Shown: one piece after another, positions 12,625 to 50,609 of the stretch
How positions within the stretch are numbered: the stretch's first letter is position 1
How the letters are laid out: every line of letters begins with the position of its first letter
Source of the DNA: Candidatus Moraniibacteriota bacterium
GTDB lineage: Bacteria > Patescibacteriota > Minisyncoccia > Moranbacterales > UBA1568
Assembly: GCA_049287005.1 (NCBI GenBank)
Contig: JBAQEZ010000003.1
Coordinates: forward strand, 693,143 to 757,142
DNA: 64,000 bases
Reading direction: 5' to 3'
Made by a program: the position numbers and the translations under genes
Notes under the pieces: model-generated
What the model saw: the letters and a program-made list of their open reading frames with translations, nothing else
The model's database searches: none
Told to the model about the DNA's origin: nothing

Positions 12625-13518
12625 TCAGTATTTCACCTTCTGCTTTGCTCCGCAGAACATCCCCTGCCGGAGCGCCGCCTCGTACTGAGCCTTGATGACA
12701 CGGGCGATCATCCCCTGATACCCCCGCTTGAGTTCGGACTGCTCGTCCCAACCCTTGTCGGAGGCATTCAGAGCGACCAAGACGTCGGTCGCCGCACTCA
12801 TGGCCGTCGAGAACCAACTCAGGCTCACTCCGAACTGGCCGTTACCCGTGAGCTTCTCAGAAAAATTGAGTTCATTGTTTTCGCGTGCCACACTGCGCAC
12901 GTACTTTTCCGCAAGCGGCGTACGGATAGCATACGGAAGCGCCTTTGTTCGCACCGTGTTCCAATCCGAGAACACTGCCTGTAGACCTTTTATCCCGGCT
13001 ACAGGAACACCTTTCAGCTTACGCGTTTCGGTGCCACCGGATAGAACCACCTCCTTGCGATACATCACATCGGAAGCCAGCTTCTCCGGCGTCTTCACGA
13101 AAATTTCTTCTCCGTAAAGATTGAATAGCCGAGTAAAACGGGTGTTGGCGAATACTCCGACGATCGGCTCGTCGATATTTCCTTCGACGATGAACACCAA
13201 TCGCAAGGCACATTCTGCAAACCCAACATATATCGCTTGGGCTGCGTATTCCTTGCCGGTGTTTGTTCCGTATGCCACGGCATGATAACGGAGCCGGAGC
13301 GGGTGCATTTCCGAAAACAGTTCATCGGGAAAGCTTCCCAGAACCGCAACGAAATTGCCACTGCTGATTGCGGGAGTTTCTTGTACTCCGATAAAGCCGA
13401 TCGGATCGATCGTGACTTCTTGTTTGCCTGCCTCGGTCGTGACCGACATGGTGTTGCCACCAAGCGTCGCACAACCAGCAAGCAATAATACAAGCAACAA
13501 TGCTATAAGCGTGCGCAT
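12625..13518 (-). CDS. Lipoprotein of unknown function (LAGC lipobox)
   Basis: MRTLIALLLVLLLAGCAT signal peptide with lipobox; AGGAGG Shine-Dalgarno 7 nt upstream; no recognisable family. Confidence 0.6.
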   Translation of the reverse strand: MRTLIALLLVLLLAGCATLGGNTMSVTTEAGKQEVTIDPIGFIGVQETPAISSGNFVAVLGSFPDELFSEMHPLRLRYHAVAYGTNTGKEYAAQAIYVGFAECALRLVFIVEGNIDEPIVGVFANTRFTRLFNLYGEEIFVKTPEKLASDVMYRKEVVLSGGTETRKLKGVPVAGIKGLQAVFSDWNTVRTKALPYAIRTPLAEKYVRSVARENNELNFSEKLTGNGQFGVSLSWFSTAMSAATDVLVALNASDKGWDEQSELKRGYQGMIARVIKAQYEAALRQGMFCGAKQKVKY

Positions 13519-13575
13519 GGCAGCCTCCTATGGAAAATTGGTTAGGTACTGAATCTTTCGGAGCCATTTCTGGTA

Positions 13576-13615
13576 CCGCGGGCAGAATAATGAATGATCA
13601 CCATTCCGCCCGCGG
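13576..13615 (-). promoter_or_regulatory. Long inverted repeat (12 of 13 bp stem, 14-nt loop) inside the predicted 5' leader of the lipoprotein mRNA
   Basis: ccgcgggcagaat-N14-attccgcccgcgg, about 58 nt upstream of the ATG and downstream of the predicted promoter. Confidence 0.4.
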
Positions 13616-13645
13616 GGTCACAAATAGACACTCTGTAAACATCAA

Positions 13646-13674
13646 ATTATACTCCATTTTCATAGAAAAGTCAA
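13646..13674 (-). promoter_or_regulatory. Near-consensus sigma70 promoter (TTGACT-17-TATAAT) for the lipoprotein gene, abutting the P1 terminator hairpin
   Basis: Reverse strand: TTGACTtttctatgaaaatggagTATAATttgatg. Confidence 0.6.
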
Positions 13675-13725
13675 GAGCCCCTCATCATACAGACTGAGGG
13701 GCTCAGGTTTGGCGATGTTCCGCCG
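13673..13725 (-). repeat. Conserved 3' element copy 1: terminator hairpin (gagcccctca/tgaggggctc) plus an exact 27-mer shared with copy 2
   Basis: 27-mer gggctcaggtttggcgatgttccgccg at 13698-13725, 5 nt past the P1 stop codon. The hairpin is followed by a U-rich tract on the minus strand. Confidence 0.7.
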
Positions 13726-13730
13726 TTTGT

Positions 13731-14213
13731 CTATCGGATTGTACTGCGTAGCATGCCGGTACAGGTCATGGAGGCGCCGGGTCCACCGATGCCGCCAGCC
13801 TGTTTGTCGGGAATGACACTCACGCCGACAAGCGGACTTGCTGCGGATACCGCGGCCGCAGTGTTGAAGATCTTCGCCACCTGCGCCAATTCGCCATCAT
13901 CGACGAGCATGAAAGCATTGCCGCCTCGTCCCTTGAACTGGAAGTTGAAGGTGGCGCACGCCGGAAGCTTGTACGGACCCGGGCCAGCAAGAACCGACCT
14001 CGCCTGTACGACTTCACATGGCGGATGGTGATAGACTTCGAAGTTCACCACCTGTGCACCAGTCACTGAGACTGTGCCTGTGCCATCACCGTTCATGACA
14101 CAGGCGACCTGACCACCAGCCGGCAGAGACTCCGGCGGAGGAGGAGCAGCATAGCTGATTCCGATAACGCCGAACGATGCTACAATTGAAACGAACTTCA
14201 GTAGTGTGCGCAT
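13731..14213 (-). CDS. Small secreted protein P1 (signal peptide, Pro-rich N-terminus, 5 Cys), unknown function
   Basis: MRTLLKFVSIVASFGVIGISYA/APPPP signal peptide; TAGGAGG Shine-Dalgarno; own promoter region and terminator. Confidence 0.55.
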   Translation of the reverse strand: MRTLLKFVSIVASFGVIGISYAAPPPPESLPAGGQVACVMNGDGTGTVSVTGAQVVNFEVYHHPPCEVVQARSVLAGPGPYKLPACATFNFQFKGRGGNAFMLVDDGELAQVAKIFNTAAAVSAASPLVGVSVIPDKQAGGIGGPGASMTCTGMLRSTIR

Positions 14214-14240
14214 GATAACCTCCTAAGGTAAGCGCTAGAC

Positions 14241-14265
14241 GATGCCGTTGATACAATCTCAGGCG
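14241..14265 (-). repeat. Conserved 5'-leader motif copy 1 (mRNA sense cgcctgagattgtatcaacggcatc), 28 nt upstream of the P1 ATG
   Basis: About 24 of 28 positions identical to copy 2 at 14864-14889. Confidence 0.55.
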
Positions 14266-14274
14266 GCTATATAT

Positions 14275-14318
14275 TACAAAAAACCAGAGGGGGTACCATT
14301 TCACTTTTGAATGGTGCC
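14275..14318 (-). terminator. Second hairpin plus U7 tract (ggcaccatt/aatggtacc) between the P2 terminator and the P1 start; a backup terminator or insulator
   Basis: Minus strand: ggcaccattcaaaagtgaaatggtacccctctggttttttt. Confidence 0.4.
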
Positions 14319-14379
14319 TTAGATATATACCAAAACCTTTCTCCTGTCAAGTGTCGGAAAATATAAAGTATATAAAGTA

Positions 14380-14434
14380 AAGAGCCCACAAAATCCGTAG
14401 ATAATGTGGGCTCAGGTTTGGCGATGTTCCGCCG
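14380..14434 (-). repeat. Conserved 3' element copy 2: terminator hairpin (gagcccaca/tgtgggctc) plus the same exact 27-mer
   Basis: 27-mer at 14408-14434, 8 nt past the P2 stop. Both copies also share the prefix aagagccc. Confidence 0.7.
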
Positions 14435-14442
14435 ATGATGGG

Positions 14443-14832
14443 CTAGCTTTTGGAGTATTTCACCTCCAATGCGCAGCCTTCCTTGGATTTCTTGCACTCC
14501 TGCGTGACGCCGGTCATCTTGAAGGCGTTGCCGGACGGAGTGACGAGGAGCCATTTGCCGGAAGCGTCCTTGAGCTGGAAGCGGGTACCCTGTTCCGATA
14601 CCTGCGACAGTGCCCCGCTGCCATCTTGCATCGGGATGCTGACAATGCCTCCCTTCTTCTGGAAGTGCACCAGCGTGACGGCCGGGAACTCGCTCGTGAC
14701 CGTAATGGTCACGTTGTCACCCGACTTGACTGCCTGAACAGTGCCACCGGCAACCGCGAAGGTTTCGGCGCTGGCCAGACCAGATGCTGCTGCCAGCAAG
14801 ACTGCTACGATACTATACGCAAAGAACTTCAT
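14443..14832 (-). CDS. Small secreted protein P2 (signal peptide, 2 Cys near the C-terminus), unknown function
   Basis: MKFFAYSIVAVLLAAASGLASA/ETF signal peptide; GGAGAA Shine-Dalgarno. Confidence 0.55.
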   Translation of the reverse strand: MKFFAYSIVAVLLAAASGLASAETFAVAGGTVQAVKSGDNVTITVTSEFPAVTLVHFQKKGGIVSIPMQDGSGALSQVSEQGTRFQLKDASGKWLLVTPSGNAFKMTGVTQECKKSKEGCALEVKYSKS

Positions 14833-14863
14833 GCTTTTCTCCTTCCGAGAAAAAACTTACGAC

Positions 14864-14889
14864 GGATGCCTTTGATGTTATCTCAGGCG
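14864..14889 (-). repeat. Conserved 5'-leader motif copy 2 (mRNA sense cgcctgagataacatcaaaggcatcc), 32 nt upstream of the P2 ATG
   Basis: Shares ATCTCAGGCG and flanking positions with copy 1. Confidence 0.55.
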
Positions 14890-14943
14890 CTTTAAGGTAC
14901 TGCCAAAGAAACCTGTGTCACCACACTCTTTCGATGACTTTAC

Positions 14944-14972
14944 ATCTTACATCAAAAATCGTTTTTTGTCAA
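14944..14972 (-). promoter_or_regulatory. Sigma70-like promoter for P2 (TTGACA-17-TAAGAT)
   Basis: Reverse strand: TTGACAaaaaacgatttttgatgTAAGATgtaaag. Confidence 0.5.
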
Positions 14973-15044
14973 CCCCGTTAGAAAACGCTACGCCTCTGGC
15001 GTGACTTCAGTCGTTTACAGCGACTTTTCCTAACGGGGTCAATA
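14967..15044. promoter_or_regulatory. Inverted repeat (10-bp perfect core accccgttag/ctaacggggt, 48-nt spacer) whose left arm overlaps the -35 box of the P2 promoter
   Basis: Both arms contain TTGAC. Candidate operator or DNA-looping site. Confidence 0.35.
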
Positions 15045-15057
15045 GCTAAAAATGGCT

Positions 15058-15105
15058 TATGTAAAAGATGAAAGGGACGTCGCGCGTAAGCACAAACGTC
15101 CCTTT
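15058..15105 (-). terminator. Intrinsic terminator for the LysM-protein gene (10-bp perfect stem aaagggacgt/acgtcccttt plus U-tract)
   Basis: Minus strand: aaagggacgtttgtgcttacgcgcgacgtccctttcatctttt. Confidence 0.6.
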
Positions 15106-15209
15106 GAAAGTATTTCGAAGCAAGTTCTTTCCGTATGCCAGGCCGCCATCGTCAATGCGATAGCCTTTTTATACACCTTGGATCAGAGGAAAGCTCTTGC
15201 CAAACCGCC

Positions 15210-16952
15210 TTATTTAGGAGGCGTGGCTGCTTCTGCCGGGATGAACTCGACTTGAGCTTCCCGACTCTTTGCATCATTTTCACGGACCTTCTTACCGAGC
15301 TCGACACGAACGAACGCGCCGACGGTTGTCAGGTCACGAGCGGAGAGCGGCTTATTGAGATCACTCACGCCAATCGGCAGAGTGACTTGCGGGCCGAACA
15401 TCAGCCACTCGTTGTAACGGATCTCATACGTACCACGGAGCCAATCTTGCTTGTCCCAATTGGTACGCGCCCATCCGCCGATCACTCGCTGACGCCACGC
15501 GTTGTCCTGCGAGAGTTTCGTCTCGTAGAACCCGGAGAGGCTCATCGAACCGCGATCTTGCACCGGCTGTGCTGTCCAGGTCGAGCTGACTGTCTGTCCA
15601 TAGGACTTCCAGTATTCACCGATCACTCCAGCCAGGTCGCCCTCGCTATTGAGCTTTTCGGTATAGCCGACGTAGGCGCCGACCTTTTGACCCTTTTGCG
15701 TGAAAGAGTAGCCGGAATCTGGATTTTCGCCCCACGACTTGTCGCGGAGCCACCTGAGTTTCAGATCAAGCGTCGAGAGACGGTTCCGATCATTCACCCA
15801 GTTGCGCTGCGCACCGACCTGCACTCCGACACCATATTCTTGGTTACGGAACGCGGTACCAATGGATTCGCCGCTGCCATACATCCCGTAGAGACCGGGG
15901 CCAGCTTGCCATGCGCCGTCTTTCCAGACATAGCAGATGGCTTCACCGTACACCCAATTCCCCTCGTACATACGGTTGCCATACAATCCGGCACCCGCCT
16001 GCACTTCGCAGCGTGGCTTGCCAGCGGCTTCTTCCGGCGTTACATGGAACGGAGGGACCATGACTTCCGGTTCTTCCGGTGGCGGGACAGGTTGCGGTTC
16101 CACTGGTGGTTCCTCAACCTTTGGCGGCGGTGTTACTATTGGTGGTGGTTGCGGTGTGCGTGGCGCGACTTCCGTGAGGTTGTCACACTTGTCCAGAATA
16201 ACGACATTCCTGCCGCTCTGCAATTGACACACAAGTCCTGCTTCCGGCTGTTTCCAGACGGCTGTCAGATTCTTGAGCACACTTCCCCTGCCGAAAGCCA
16301 TCCAAGGAAACTTCGTACCGCGAGAAAATTCCTCACGAACGCATTTCCCCTGGTCACGGAGACTGAGGTATTCATCAATCTCGGCCACTGTATAGCCTTG
16401 CCCCGATAAGATCTTGCGATCCTTTTCGGGAGTACGGTACTTGGCATACGGAGCGACTCCCAATCTTGCGATCGGAAGCGACCCGTCGGCTAGACGCCGC
16501 ACCGGCGTGTGAACAATGGTTTTGGCCTCGACACCGAGAGGAACGATGAGTTCCTGTCCGACTCGGACGAGATTACAGTTCTTGAGACTATTCGCCTCGC
16601 ATACTGCTTTCGCTTCCTTGCCGAAAACTCCTTCAAGCGTATCGCCACTGCTGACGACATACTTGCTGATCTCCGGCTTAGAGGGAGCTGCTTCAGCTAT
16701 TTCAGCCTTCTCAGTAGCGACCTTTTCGCTCTCAAGGGATGGCCCTGACACTGGCGATGAGGCCGGTGCCGCTGAAGCGAGTTGCGTAATAGTGGGAATC
16801 GGTGGCGCGAGCGGAGTCGCCGCTGGGTCCTTTTCCTGGGACGAGTAGTCACCAAGAAGAAGAATGCTACCGATAATAAGGAAGAGAACAACCATGGCAA
16901 TAATATACTGCCACCATGGCCGTCTCTTCTTCCATGCTTTAACCTTGGTCAT
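15210..16952 (-). CDS. Membrane-anchored LysM-domain protein with a Pro-rich linker and a C-terminal W/Y/G-rich beta-type domain
   Basis: The ATG at 16950-16952 has a GGAGA Shine-Dalgarno; the ORF-track start at 16985 is a GTG without one. Domain order: TM, LysM-like segment (YVVSSGDTLEGV...VRVGQELIVP), PPPIVTPPPKVEEPPVEPQPVPPPEEPE linker, then an aromatic-rich domain of about 270 aa. Confidence 0.6.
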   Translation of the reverse strand: MTKVKAWKKRRPWWQYIIAMVVLFLIIGSILLLGDYSSQEKDPAATPLAPPIPTITQLASAAPASSPVSGPSLESEKVATEKAEIAEAAPSKPEISKYVVSSGDTLEGVFGKEAKAVCEANSLKNCNLVRVGQELIVPLGVEAKTIVHTPVRRLADGSLPIARLGVAPYAKYRTPEKDRKILSGQGYTVAEIDEYLSLRDQGKCVREEFSRGTKFPWMAFGRGSVLKNLTAVWKQPEAGLVCQLQSGRNVVILDKCDNLTEVAPRTPQPPPIVTPPPKVEEPPVEPQPVPPPEEPEVMVPPFHVTPEEAAGKPRCEVQAGAGLYGNRMYEGNWVYGEAICYVWKDGAWQAGPGLYGMYGSGESIGTAFRNQEYGVGVQVGAQRNWVNDRNRLSTLDLKLRWLRDKSWGENPDSGYSFTQKGQKVGAYVGYTEKLNSEGDLAGVIGEYWKSYGQTVSSTWTAQPVQDRGSMSLSGFYETKLSQDNAWRQRVIGGWARTNWDKQDWLRGTYEIRYNEWLMFGPQVTLPIGVSDLNKPLSARDLTTVGAFVRVELGKKVRENDAKSREAQVEFIPAEAATPPK

Positions 16953-17163
16953 GGTGTTCTCCGGTTGAGTTTTCGAATGGGTCACCGCAAAGCGACCCGG
17001 ATTGAGTTTGCTTCACGATTTCCTCCTACAGCTTGGTTGAAAACCGGCCCTACGAAAGAGCCTCTTGAAAACGTACTTATTGTTAATGATCTTGATGATC
17101 CGAATGGGTCATCTCAACCGCTCTCGACTACAACTATCTCAAGAGCGGGATGACATATCCCAT

Positions 17164-50312: not shown

Positions 50313-50349
50313 GCTTCTCCACCTCTTTACCAATTGAATAAAGGAAAAG

Positions 50350-50553
50350 ATGATGATTGATTGTCCGCAATGTTCAGAGCCGATGTCTCTGAAGTACGAT
50401 ACCCTGTGCACGCTTCTGACGCAGCGAGTGACAAGAACCTTTCGCGTGTTCCACCACTCGAAATACCACAGCCGGTGCCCATACCAACATTTCGTCCCGA
50501 TTGCCACGATGCCTCTCTCGGAGCTGAACCTCCCGTGCGCAATCAGCAACTGA
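50350..50553 (+). CDS. Small Cys-containing hypothetical protein (67 aa), a plus-strand gene in the lepA-murJ gap
   Basis: AAGGAAAAG Shine-Dalgarno before ATGATG; CPQC near the N-terminus; ends just before a double-hairpin terminator. Confidence 0.35.
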   Translation: MMIDCPQCSEPMSLKYDTLCTLLTQRVTRTFRVFHHSKYHSRCPYQHFVPIATMPLSELNLPCAISN

Positions 50554-50609
50554 GGCGGGCAACGTCCGCCAAACACCCCCATCGCCCGCAAGGCATGGGG
50601 GCTTTTCTT
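50554..50609 (+). terminator. Tandem hairpins (ggcgg/ccgcc and cccccat/atggggg) plus U-tract
   Basis: ggcgggcaacgtccgcc...cccccatcgcccgcaaggcatgggggcttttctt. Confidence 0.55.

Follow-up and report, generated by a model that had tools for sequence, protein, structure and literature searches.

The P1/P2 locus

The stretch of DNA studied here (the window) is 64,000 nt of the genome of a Candidatus Moraniibacteriota bacterium, a member of the Candidate Phyla Radiation (CPR). It contains two small adjacent genes, P1 and P2, whose coding regions are very different while parts of their non-coding flanks are nearly or completely identical. P1 (13731-14213) and P2 (14443-14832) both lie on the minus strand, at the coordinates given in an earlier sequence-only reading of the same DNA, and are 100% matches to hypothetical proteins WAV46_04615 and WAV46_04620, encoded on a contig of 766,823 bp in a Moraniibacteriota metagenome-assembled genome (MAG). 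P1 encodes 160 aa, with a putative Sec-type signal peptide (MRTLLKFVSI...), a modelled beta-sandwich domain and a C-terminal part that is modelled poorly. P2 encodes 129 aa, with a putative Sec-type signal peptide, a modelled beta-sandwich domain and a Cys pair at the C-terminus. The candidate signal peptides, assigned by reading, are MRTLLKFVSIVASFGVIGISYA/AP and MKFFAYSIVAVLLAAASGLASA/ET, and across the P2 family the cleavage region ASA/ETF is invariant. A Pfam scan found no domain in either protein, and a literature search for secreted or surface proteins of Moranbacteria returned nothing specific.

The pair occupies a slot between two larger genes on the same strand. Upstream is a gene for a 591-aa protein with a LysM domain (15210-16985), and downstream a gene for a 297-aa lipoprotein (12625-13518), orthologs of which are present in the related loci L001, L005 to L007, L014 and L025. 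The tandem arrangement is not an artefact of assembly, because positions 12979-15377 of the window, which take in both genes, are 100% identical to L030, an independent Logan assembly of another sequencing run (SRR28062879). The GC content at third codon positions (GC3) of P1 is 60.9, like that of the neighbouring genes, and GC3 does not look foreign. The GC3 of P2 is 73.8%, above that of P1 and the neighbours (55-61%) and of 19 long open reading frames (ORFs) in the window (mean 56.4, maximum 67.6); this may be the codon bias of a highly expressed gene.

The shared 3' element and the terminators

The 3' ends of the two genes are built in the same order: the stop codon, 5-8 nt, a small hairpin GGCG-GAACAU-CGCC, a spacer AAACCU, a strong GC-rich hairpin and a U-rich tract. 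It had been claimed that an exact 27-mer is shared by these flanks, and this proved right. The 27-mer, GGGCTCAGGTTTGGCGATGTTCCGCCG when read on the plus strand, is found at 13699-13725 and 14408-14434, and a search of the window allowing up to three mismatches gave these 2 matches against 0.00 expected from shuffled sequence. Its distances from the stop codons (5 nt in P1 and 8 nt in P2, on the minus strand) also agree with what had been reported, whereas the reported start at 13698 was one base off. In the P2 copy the small hairpin pairs GGCG (14430-14433) with CGCC (14420-14423), and after the spacer come the letters GAGCCC, the first 6 nt of the terminator stem; in the P1 copy GGCG (13721-13724) pairs with CGCC (13711-13714), and the same spacer and 6 nt of terminator stem come next. 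The 27-mer is made up of a small hairpin, its spacer and, from a predicted intrinsic terminator, the 5' arm. The 'aagagccc prefix' to which it had been described as fused is equally real, being the other arm of the terminator hairpin plus the TTGAC or TTTAC that follows (AAAGTMAAGAGCCC, 13/14 identical).

The P2 terminator (14373-14413, minus strand) has the stem GAGCCCACA/TGTGGGCTC and a loop of what we call type A, and is followed by UUUACUUUAU. That of P1 (13646-13704, minus strand, with the stem-loop at 13675-13704) has the stem GAGCCCCTCA/TGAGGGGCTC and a loop of type B. On the coding strand the hairpin arms read GAGCCCCUCA/UGAGGGGCUC in P1 and GAGCCCACA/UGUGGGCUC in P2. Folding with RNAfold gave a perfect 10-bp stem for P1 (-28.4 kcal/mol over a 74-nt region, z -3.7) and a 9-bp stem for P2 (-28.7 kcal/mol, z -6.0). 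The U-tracts, UUGACUUUU in P1 and UUUACUUUA in P2, each have at least 5 T in 9 nt and both are interrupted; a stricter terminator scan with a loop limit of 8 nt did not list either terminator. A small hairpin followed by a strong terminator is the RNAfold structure common to P1, P2 and the related loci L001, L006, L007 and L025 (z -3.7 to -9.4), and the stem and loop of the P2 terminator are like those of P2-type genes in L001, L005, L007 and L011.

The U-tract of the P1 terminator doubles as the -35 box of the promoter of the lipoprotein gene (TTGACT at 13669-13674, a 17-nt spacer and TATAAT at 13646-13651), which a promoter scan scored as an 11/12 match. The same fusion of terminator and promoter lies upstream of the lipoprotein gene in all relatives. 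After the P2 terminator the box equivalent to TTGACT is TTTACT, and a weaker, probable promoter for P1 follows about 30 nt further on. In having a GC-rich hairpin whose U-rich tract is the TTGACT -35 box, the arrangement resembles the intrinsic terminators fused to a downstream promoter that occur in compact genomes; it differs from a plain intrinsic terminator in the extra small hairpin (GGCG-loop-CGCC) and AAAC-type spacer ahead of it, a module that occurs three times in the 64 kb.

The third occurrence of this module is at 50554-50601 on the plus strand, where GGCGG-loop-CCGCC, AAACA, a terminator hairpin and a U-tract follow an unrelated Cys-rich ORF of about 66 aa (approximately 50346-50548). 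The pattern GGCGN{3,9}CGCCAAAC has 4 matches in the window against 0.05 expected. The two-hairpin 3' end may be a general design in this genome and not a tag of P1 and P2.

With the Rfam 15 gathering scores only 2 tRNAs were found in the window, and with E values up to 10 the region 13400-15300 gave only three noise hits far under threshold. A relaxed form of the 27-mer pattern had 0 matches in 185,579 GTDB representative genomes, among which the source genome is not included. Four matches to a 19-nt core of the 27-mer in viral contigs were set aside as chance, as no terminator context accompanies them and the sequence around them is unrelated. A role of the 27-mer on the plus strand was also considered; a weak terminator-like site is present there at 13710-13725, but no plus-strand gene converges on it.

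Different ORFs between similar flanks, each with an imperfect palindrome directly 3' of it, are what would be expected of mobile cassettes moved by site-specific recombination, as in integrons or shufflons, with the hairpin of the 27-mer as the recombination site. To this extent the locus is like a series of integron cassettes with their attC elements. However the hairpins here are a terminator and a stem of 4-5 bp, and reading of the sequence around them revealed no RYYYAAC/GTTRRRY core sites of the attC kind. Pfam scans of 15 proteins spread over about 10 kb to each side (approximately 5.2-24.5 kb) detected no domain of an integrase, recombinase or transposase; the genes around the slot encode GT4 glycosyltransferases, a beta-helix protein, Wzy_C, an M50 protease, RRF and tRNA synthetases. 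Both units are equipped with a promoter and a Shine-Dalgarno site of their own, synteny of the locus is kept in all relatives within a housekeeping and cell-envelope region, and the element is found as two copies in the window, none in the GTDB representatives and chance matches only in viral contigs. Cassettes of the integron type are excluded by these features, and we regard any site-specific cassette system here as barely credible. The 27-mer and the leader motif described below had been thought of as possible special recombination sites or regulatory RNA elements; neither a dedicated site nor a known RNA family is supported. As judged from sequence, the shared flanks of P1 and P2 are ordinary expression signals: a hairpin in the 5' untranslated region (UTR), a 3' hairpin, and a terminator directly adjoining the promoter of the gene that follows.

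The leader motif and the promoters

A second conserved element upstream of both ATGs, also noted in the sequence-only reading, is indeed present. The leader motif, CGCCTGAGATNNNATCAANGGCATC, lies on the minus strand at 14241-14265 for P1 and 14865-14889 for P2, its copies are identical at 21/25 positions, and its 3' end is 27 nt (P1) or 32 nt (P2) upstream of the ATG, in line with the earlier reading. With three mismatches allowed it occurs exactly twice in the window, and no occurrences were expected from shuffles. The P2 copy (CGCCTGAGATAACATCAAAGGCATC) can form a small hairpin with an internal loop, ((((..(((...)))..)))), while the fold of the P1 copy (CGCCTGAGATTGTATCAACGGCATC) is not significant (z 0.12); taken together, the two copies in the window form no more than a weak 3+3 bp stem interrupted by an internal loop, which does not reach significance.

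In a MAFFT alignment the position of the leader motif is that of the second of two 5'-UTR hairpins in the relatives. Among six relatives RNAalifold supports a conserved structure for both hairpins, with 2 compensatory pairs in hairpin 2; this subset was used as all 11 leaders aligned poorly and gave no consensus. The leader motif is probably the local form of 5'-UTR hairpin 2. Pairing of the leader motif with the 27-mer was rejected on inspection, since both carry CCUGAG in the same sense and are not complementary.

The P2 promoter (14944-14972, minus strand) has TTGACA, a 17-nt spacer and TAAGAT, a 10/12 match in the promoter scan, and the promoters of all P2-type and P1-type relatives (those with homologs of one gene or the other) align to it (TTGACAAAA...TGTAGTAT). 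The probable P1 promoter (14322-14350, minus strand; TTGACA, 17-nt spacer, TATATC) is weaker and was read from the sequence, not called by the scan; it also aligns to the P2 promoter (TTTTCYRAC..TTGACA..TTTTGRT).

Two further features were observed in this region. The 5'-UTR of P1 begins (14292-14318, minus strand) with a hairpin of its own, GGCACCAUU..AAUGGUACC, followed by CCCUCUGGUUUUUUG. Its sequence shows no relationship to that of the first leader hairpin in P2 or the relatives, and it could be an attenuator-like structure. An inverted repeat directly adjoins the -35 box of the P2-type promoter on the upstream side, with arms at 14972-14986 and 15025-15039 in the window (ACCCCGTTAGRAAA, 38 nt between them) and at 2834-2859 and 2930-2955 in the related locus L006 (26 nt, 92% complementary, 70 nt between). 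A direct TTGAC repeat brackets it in both, and the sister locus of L006, L025, is without it. The inverted repeat could be a small insertion like a miniature inverted-repeat transposable element, or an upstream hairpin. The idea of an invertible P2 promoter was rejected, as the promoter lies outside the arms.

Relationship between the P1 and P2 proteins

P1 and P2 had been described as unrelated ORFs, and direct BLASTP between them gives E values of only 0.04-0.16. Searches by k-mer or word index left P1 as an orphan, a status overturned by an exhaustive HMMER search, which found homologs P0013 (43% identity), P0014 (33%), P0015 (39%) and, more weakly, P0019. A scan of GTDB genomes likewise placed a P1 homolog of 43% identity in the Moraniibacteriota MAG L025. 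For P2, ten homologs other than P2 itself were found, at 54-68% identity. Comparison of the two family profiles with the signal peptides included gave a probability of 91%, which is not proof of homology between the mature proteins because most of the score comes from the signal peptides. Across types, the P2-type protein of L006 matches the P1-type gene of L025 (39%, E 6.6e-4) over the signal peptide and about 30 mature residues.

The transcription units themselves are collinear, with the promoter, a leader patch, the signal-peptide codons, an AGGxVxxVxxGD patch, the FQxKG codons and the 3' end in the same order. The repeated patches are spaced at 624 nt for the leader, 631 for the signal-peptide codons, 721 for the FQxKG codons (14/17 nt identical), 709 for the 27-mer and 707 for the terminator arm. 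AlphaFold models of P1 and P2 match the same beta-sandwich chains of FN3/CBM56 type. Collinear units, a cross-type match, common structural matches and the existence of P1 homologs do not sustain the view that the ORFs are unrelated; P1 and P2 are probably very old paralogs, with the mature domains themselves pointing only faintly to common descent.

Tandem genes, an exact 27-mer and collinear units could also be produced by a recent local duplication of P2 that gave rise to P1, if the coding region of the new copy diverged extremely fast and the flanks lagged behind. This we consider very improbable. P1-type proteins occur in at least four other lineages, including two loci that hold only a P1-type gene in the same slot, and since they are only 33-43% identical to P1 the identity of the P1 and P2 flanks does not date from a recent duplication. 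Between the two copies the promoter, the terminator loop and most of the leader have moreover already diverged strongly.

The slot in related genomes

The order of genes is the same in all relatives: M50 protease, a 212-aa protein, the LysM protein, the small gene, the lipoprotein, Wzy_C and GT4. At least 12 loci, found through P2 homologs and through scans of metagenomes for the junction of terminator and promoter, have only a P2-type gene in the slot between the LysM protein and the lipoprotein. In L025 the same slot holds a single P1-type gene, and in L014 a P1-type gene lies between the structured element that follows the LysM gene (described below) and the lipoprotein ortholog. No remnant of the other gene type was found at the single-gene loci. 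The 3' element is present at the orthologous loci of the relatives, with 17-23/27 positions kept. Motifs confined to this locus would have spoken for a trivial recent duplication; the 3' element argues against one, and of the two elements it is only the exact leader-motif sequence that was found in this genome alone.

The most informative comparison is that of L006, which is P2-type, with L025, which is P1-type. These are each other's closest relatives in the set, with lipoproteins 81% and Wzy proteins 88% identical and flanking DNA at 80-87%. When they are aligned globally, homology can still be recognised in the promoter, leader and signal-peptide region and the mature coding sequence is at noise level, but in the 3' flanks, counted from just past the stop codon, 76/79 positions agree. 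The flanks had been said to be much better conserved than the coding sequence, and this is upheld between genomes as well as within one. So is that of a cassette-like pattern, because L006 and L025 have different ORFs in the same slot on near-identical flanks.

This observation also suggests another history, in which there was a single ancestral slot with two long-lived alleles, swapped by recombination in the flanks; the flanks would be the footprints of crossovers and the tandem pair a recent capture by unequal crossing-over. Such a history would account for the difference in type between the two sister loci, the presence of both gene types in both clades, the restriction of the tandem state to one population and the lack of remnants at single-gene loci. 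However, P1 has a diverged promoter of its own, its first leader hairpin is different and the junction after the P2 terminator is unique, while recent capture from a strain with the same slot should bring a normal upstream region. The P1 and P2 units also share patches of identity only, and no long identical arms. Allele swapping in a single slot thus seems unlikely to us, although it deserves to be taken seriously, and what is peculiar to the P1 unit in its promoter, first hairpin and junction mildly favours the view that the tandem pair is old.

A further P1-type gene, that of P0014, was observed on the short contig L013 (1-1416), where it has the family promoter, the leader hairpin, the two-hairpin 3' end and a type-B loop. 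It is followed by a fragment resembling a LysR substrate-binding domain, an unusual neighbour for CPR, and L013 could be of a different lineage or a chimeric contig.

Origin of the flank identity

Both types are old. Between the window and L025 57% of residues of the P1-type protein differ, and between the window and L006 43% of those of the P2-type protein; the flanks of the paralogs should therefore have diverged at least as far as those of the orthologs. This is not what is observed. The 27-nt segment groups by genome and not by type of ORF, with 27/27 positions identical between P1 and P2 of the window, 26/27 between L006 and L025, and 17-23/27 between the window and other loci. There are 22 columns out of 27 in which the letter of the window is not shared by every relative. 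Selection for the hairpin does not demand the exact 27-mer. The terminator loops add mosaics to this picture. Type-A loops are found in the P2-type loci L001, L005, L007 and L011 and in the P2 copy of the window, and type-B loops in the P1 copy of the window, L025, L013 and also L006, the ORF of which is P2-type. P2 of the window accordingly combines a type-A terminator with a P1-like 27-mer, and L006 a P2-type ORF with a type-B terminator. Because flanks cluster by genome and mosaics occur, recombination between copies is inferred.

We therefore favour, with a probability of roughly 0.6, the reading that a single transcription unit gave rise long ago to the diverged versions P1 and P2, the flanks of which are alike through recombination between the copies. 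As read from the sequence, the unit has a promoter of sigma-70 type, about 110 nt of 5'-UTR that holds two stem-loops, a strong Shine-Dalgarno sequence, a putative Sec signal peptide, a beta-sandwich protein, a small GC hairpin and a terminator, and its two versions stand in tandem within the conserved cell-envelope locus from the LysM-protein gene to the lipoprotein gene. Homologous recombination between the copies (gene conversion, leading to concerted evolution) would keep the flanks near-identical, on top of selection for working expression signals. The repeated flanks would also serve as homology arms for deletion of a copy by unequal crossing-over or for exchange, which could have left P2 only, P1 only, or a P2-type ORF with a P1-associated terminator in the relatives. 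The anatomy of the units, their folds, the spread of the types over the loci and the grouping of the flanks by genome are observed; gene conversion and deletion are the mechanisms that these suggest. It had been proposed that the flanks are recombination signals, and as arms for homologous recombination this is plausible. The P1 and P2 proteins may bind surface or carbohydrate ligands and may be under diversifying pressure.

Several points weigh against this reading. Gene conversion has been deduced from only two copies and about ten related loci. The identity between P1 and P2 is patchy (27/27 in the 27-mer, about half in the terminator loop, 13/14 in the terminator arm), and selection acting on separate pieces would give the same pattern. 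The third module, at 50554-50601, follows an unrelated ORF, and a general role might alone constrain the small hairpin. The exact leader-motif sequence was found only in this genome, with no counterpart in the relatives, and its folds (z -1.1 and 0.1) are not significant. As for the proteins, comparison of the families by hhalign with mature sequences only gave a probability of 4.5% (E 0.009), the confidence of the models is moderate (predicted local distance difference test scores of 73 and 64), and the beta-sandwich fold is very common.

Another reading is that the flanks are a dedicated post-transcriptional tag, such as a site for an RNA-binding protein or small RNA (sRNA) or a stability determinant, kept by purifying selection alone in two co-regulated genes and with no recombination. 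The structure of the small 3' hairpin is kept across relatives while its loop and upper stem vary, the UTRs are more conserved than coding DNA (as in the 3' flanks of L006 and L025 and in the lipoprotein leader, at about 97%), and the third module with its terminator is part of a pattern far in excess of expectation. It is difficult, however, to reconcile such a tag with relatives that keep the hairpin and yet between them differ from the window at 22/27 positions, or with a 27-nt segment whose grouping follows the genome and not the type of gene. The third copy of the module follows a Cys-rich ORF that is not secreted, relatives offer no counterpart of the leader motif that is conserved in sequence, and there was no Rfam match at E values up to 10. 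A control tag acting alone is in our view improbable. It is also conceivable, if decidedly speculative, that the conserved non-coding arms (with promoter, leader and signal-peptide region at one end, small hairpin and terminator at the other) form an exchange system anchored in the UTRs, by which alternative secreted beta-sandwich proteins of a single cell-envelope slot are swapped, duplicated or deleted in Moraniibacteriota populations under pressure from hosts or phages, and that GGCG-loop-CGCC-AAAC ahead of terminators is a CPR-specific 3'-end RNA signal for an unknown factor.

Comparison with known systems

The closest known parallel of the P1/P2 locus is the concerted evolution of babA/babB and homA/homB in Helicobacter pylori. 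In babA/babB, as in homA/homB and sabA/sabB, paralogous surface-protein genes have extensive 5' and 3' homology and a divergent middle (PMC3960876). The 3' segments of bab-type genes are more alike within strains than between them, which has been attributed to intragenomic RecA-dependent gene conversion, and the loci may be occupied by one paralog or the other (PMC3960876). The 27-nt 3' segment of the window similarly groups by genome, and occupancy of the slot varies. In contrast to babA/babB, the conserved arms of P1 and P2 are mostly non-coding (promoter, UTR hairpins and terminator) plus the signal peptide, and are not the ends of the coding region. P1 and P2 are adjacent in tandem rather than at distant loci, and their divergence covers almost the whole of the mature protein, going beyond reliable sequence homology. 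They also belong to an uncultured CPR bacterium, in which conversion is proposed from sequence.

A second comparison is with allele groups. The pilA groups of Pseudomonas aeruginosa and the H-antigen alleles of flagellin occupy a fixed slot. Conservation there is confined to the flanks and the N-terminal part, which serves secretion or assembly, and divergent alleles are exchanged by recombination in the flanks. Like them, the P1/P2 locus is a conserved chromosomal slot that holds sharply different types of secreted protein. Unlike them, the types are about as distant as unrelated proteins, and one genome carries both in tandem.

The proposed mechanism is not new, being that of concerted evolution and allele replacement as known from surface-protein genes of pathogens. 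The flank finding is real, is more than a trivial duplication and belongs to a known kind of phenomenon. CPR bacteria, the Moraniibacteriota among them, are uncultured organisms with tiny genomes and a lifestyle that is thought to involve attachment to host cells, and to our knowledge almost nothing is known of their surface proteins and gene regulation. The locus is a concrete case of a variable slot for secreted proteins inside a conserved cell-envelope gene cluster, where the proteins change faster than the untranslated signals, and recombination appears to homogenise the latter. If this is true, the slot would mark candidate proteins for interaction with hosts or phages, and UTR hairpins would be strongly constrained in the reduced genomes of CPR.

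Other structured elements of the locus

Two more structured elements were observed on either side of the slot, both on the minus strand. Directly after the stop codon of the LysM-protein gene there is an element of about 130-150 nt, at approximately 15050-15200 in the window and at 2655-2812 in L001, 2625-2772 in L005, 2620-2765 in L006 and 4592-4735 in L025. It has an outer stem, CCA.GGU/GCCUGG, around a hairpin, then an A-rich linker with a conserved UGCUUCGAAA, a terminator hairpin and a U-run. RNAalifold on 10 loci predicted 26 pairs, 15 of which have compensatory double changes. The element had no Rfam match at E values up to 10 and is a candidate for a new sRNA or structured 3'-UTR in Moraniibacteriota.

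The other element is the 5'-UTR of the lipoprotein gene (approximately 13519-13645 in the window, 3607-3700 in L006 and 5685-5780 in L025), which contains a long conserved hairpin, GGUAUGGCGGGCGGAAU...AUUCUGCCCGCGGUACC, and then a conserved CAGAAAUGG...UCAGUACCUA. Between L006 and L025 this UTR is about 97% identical against about 80% for coding DNA. In L010 and L020 an entirely different stem sequence is found at the same place, and comparison of these sequences suggests that the hairpin of the lipoprotein 5'-UTR is a conserved structure.

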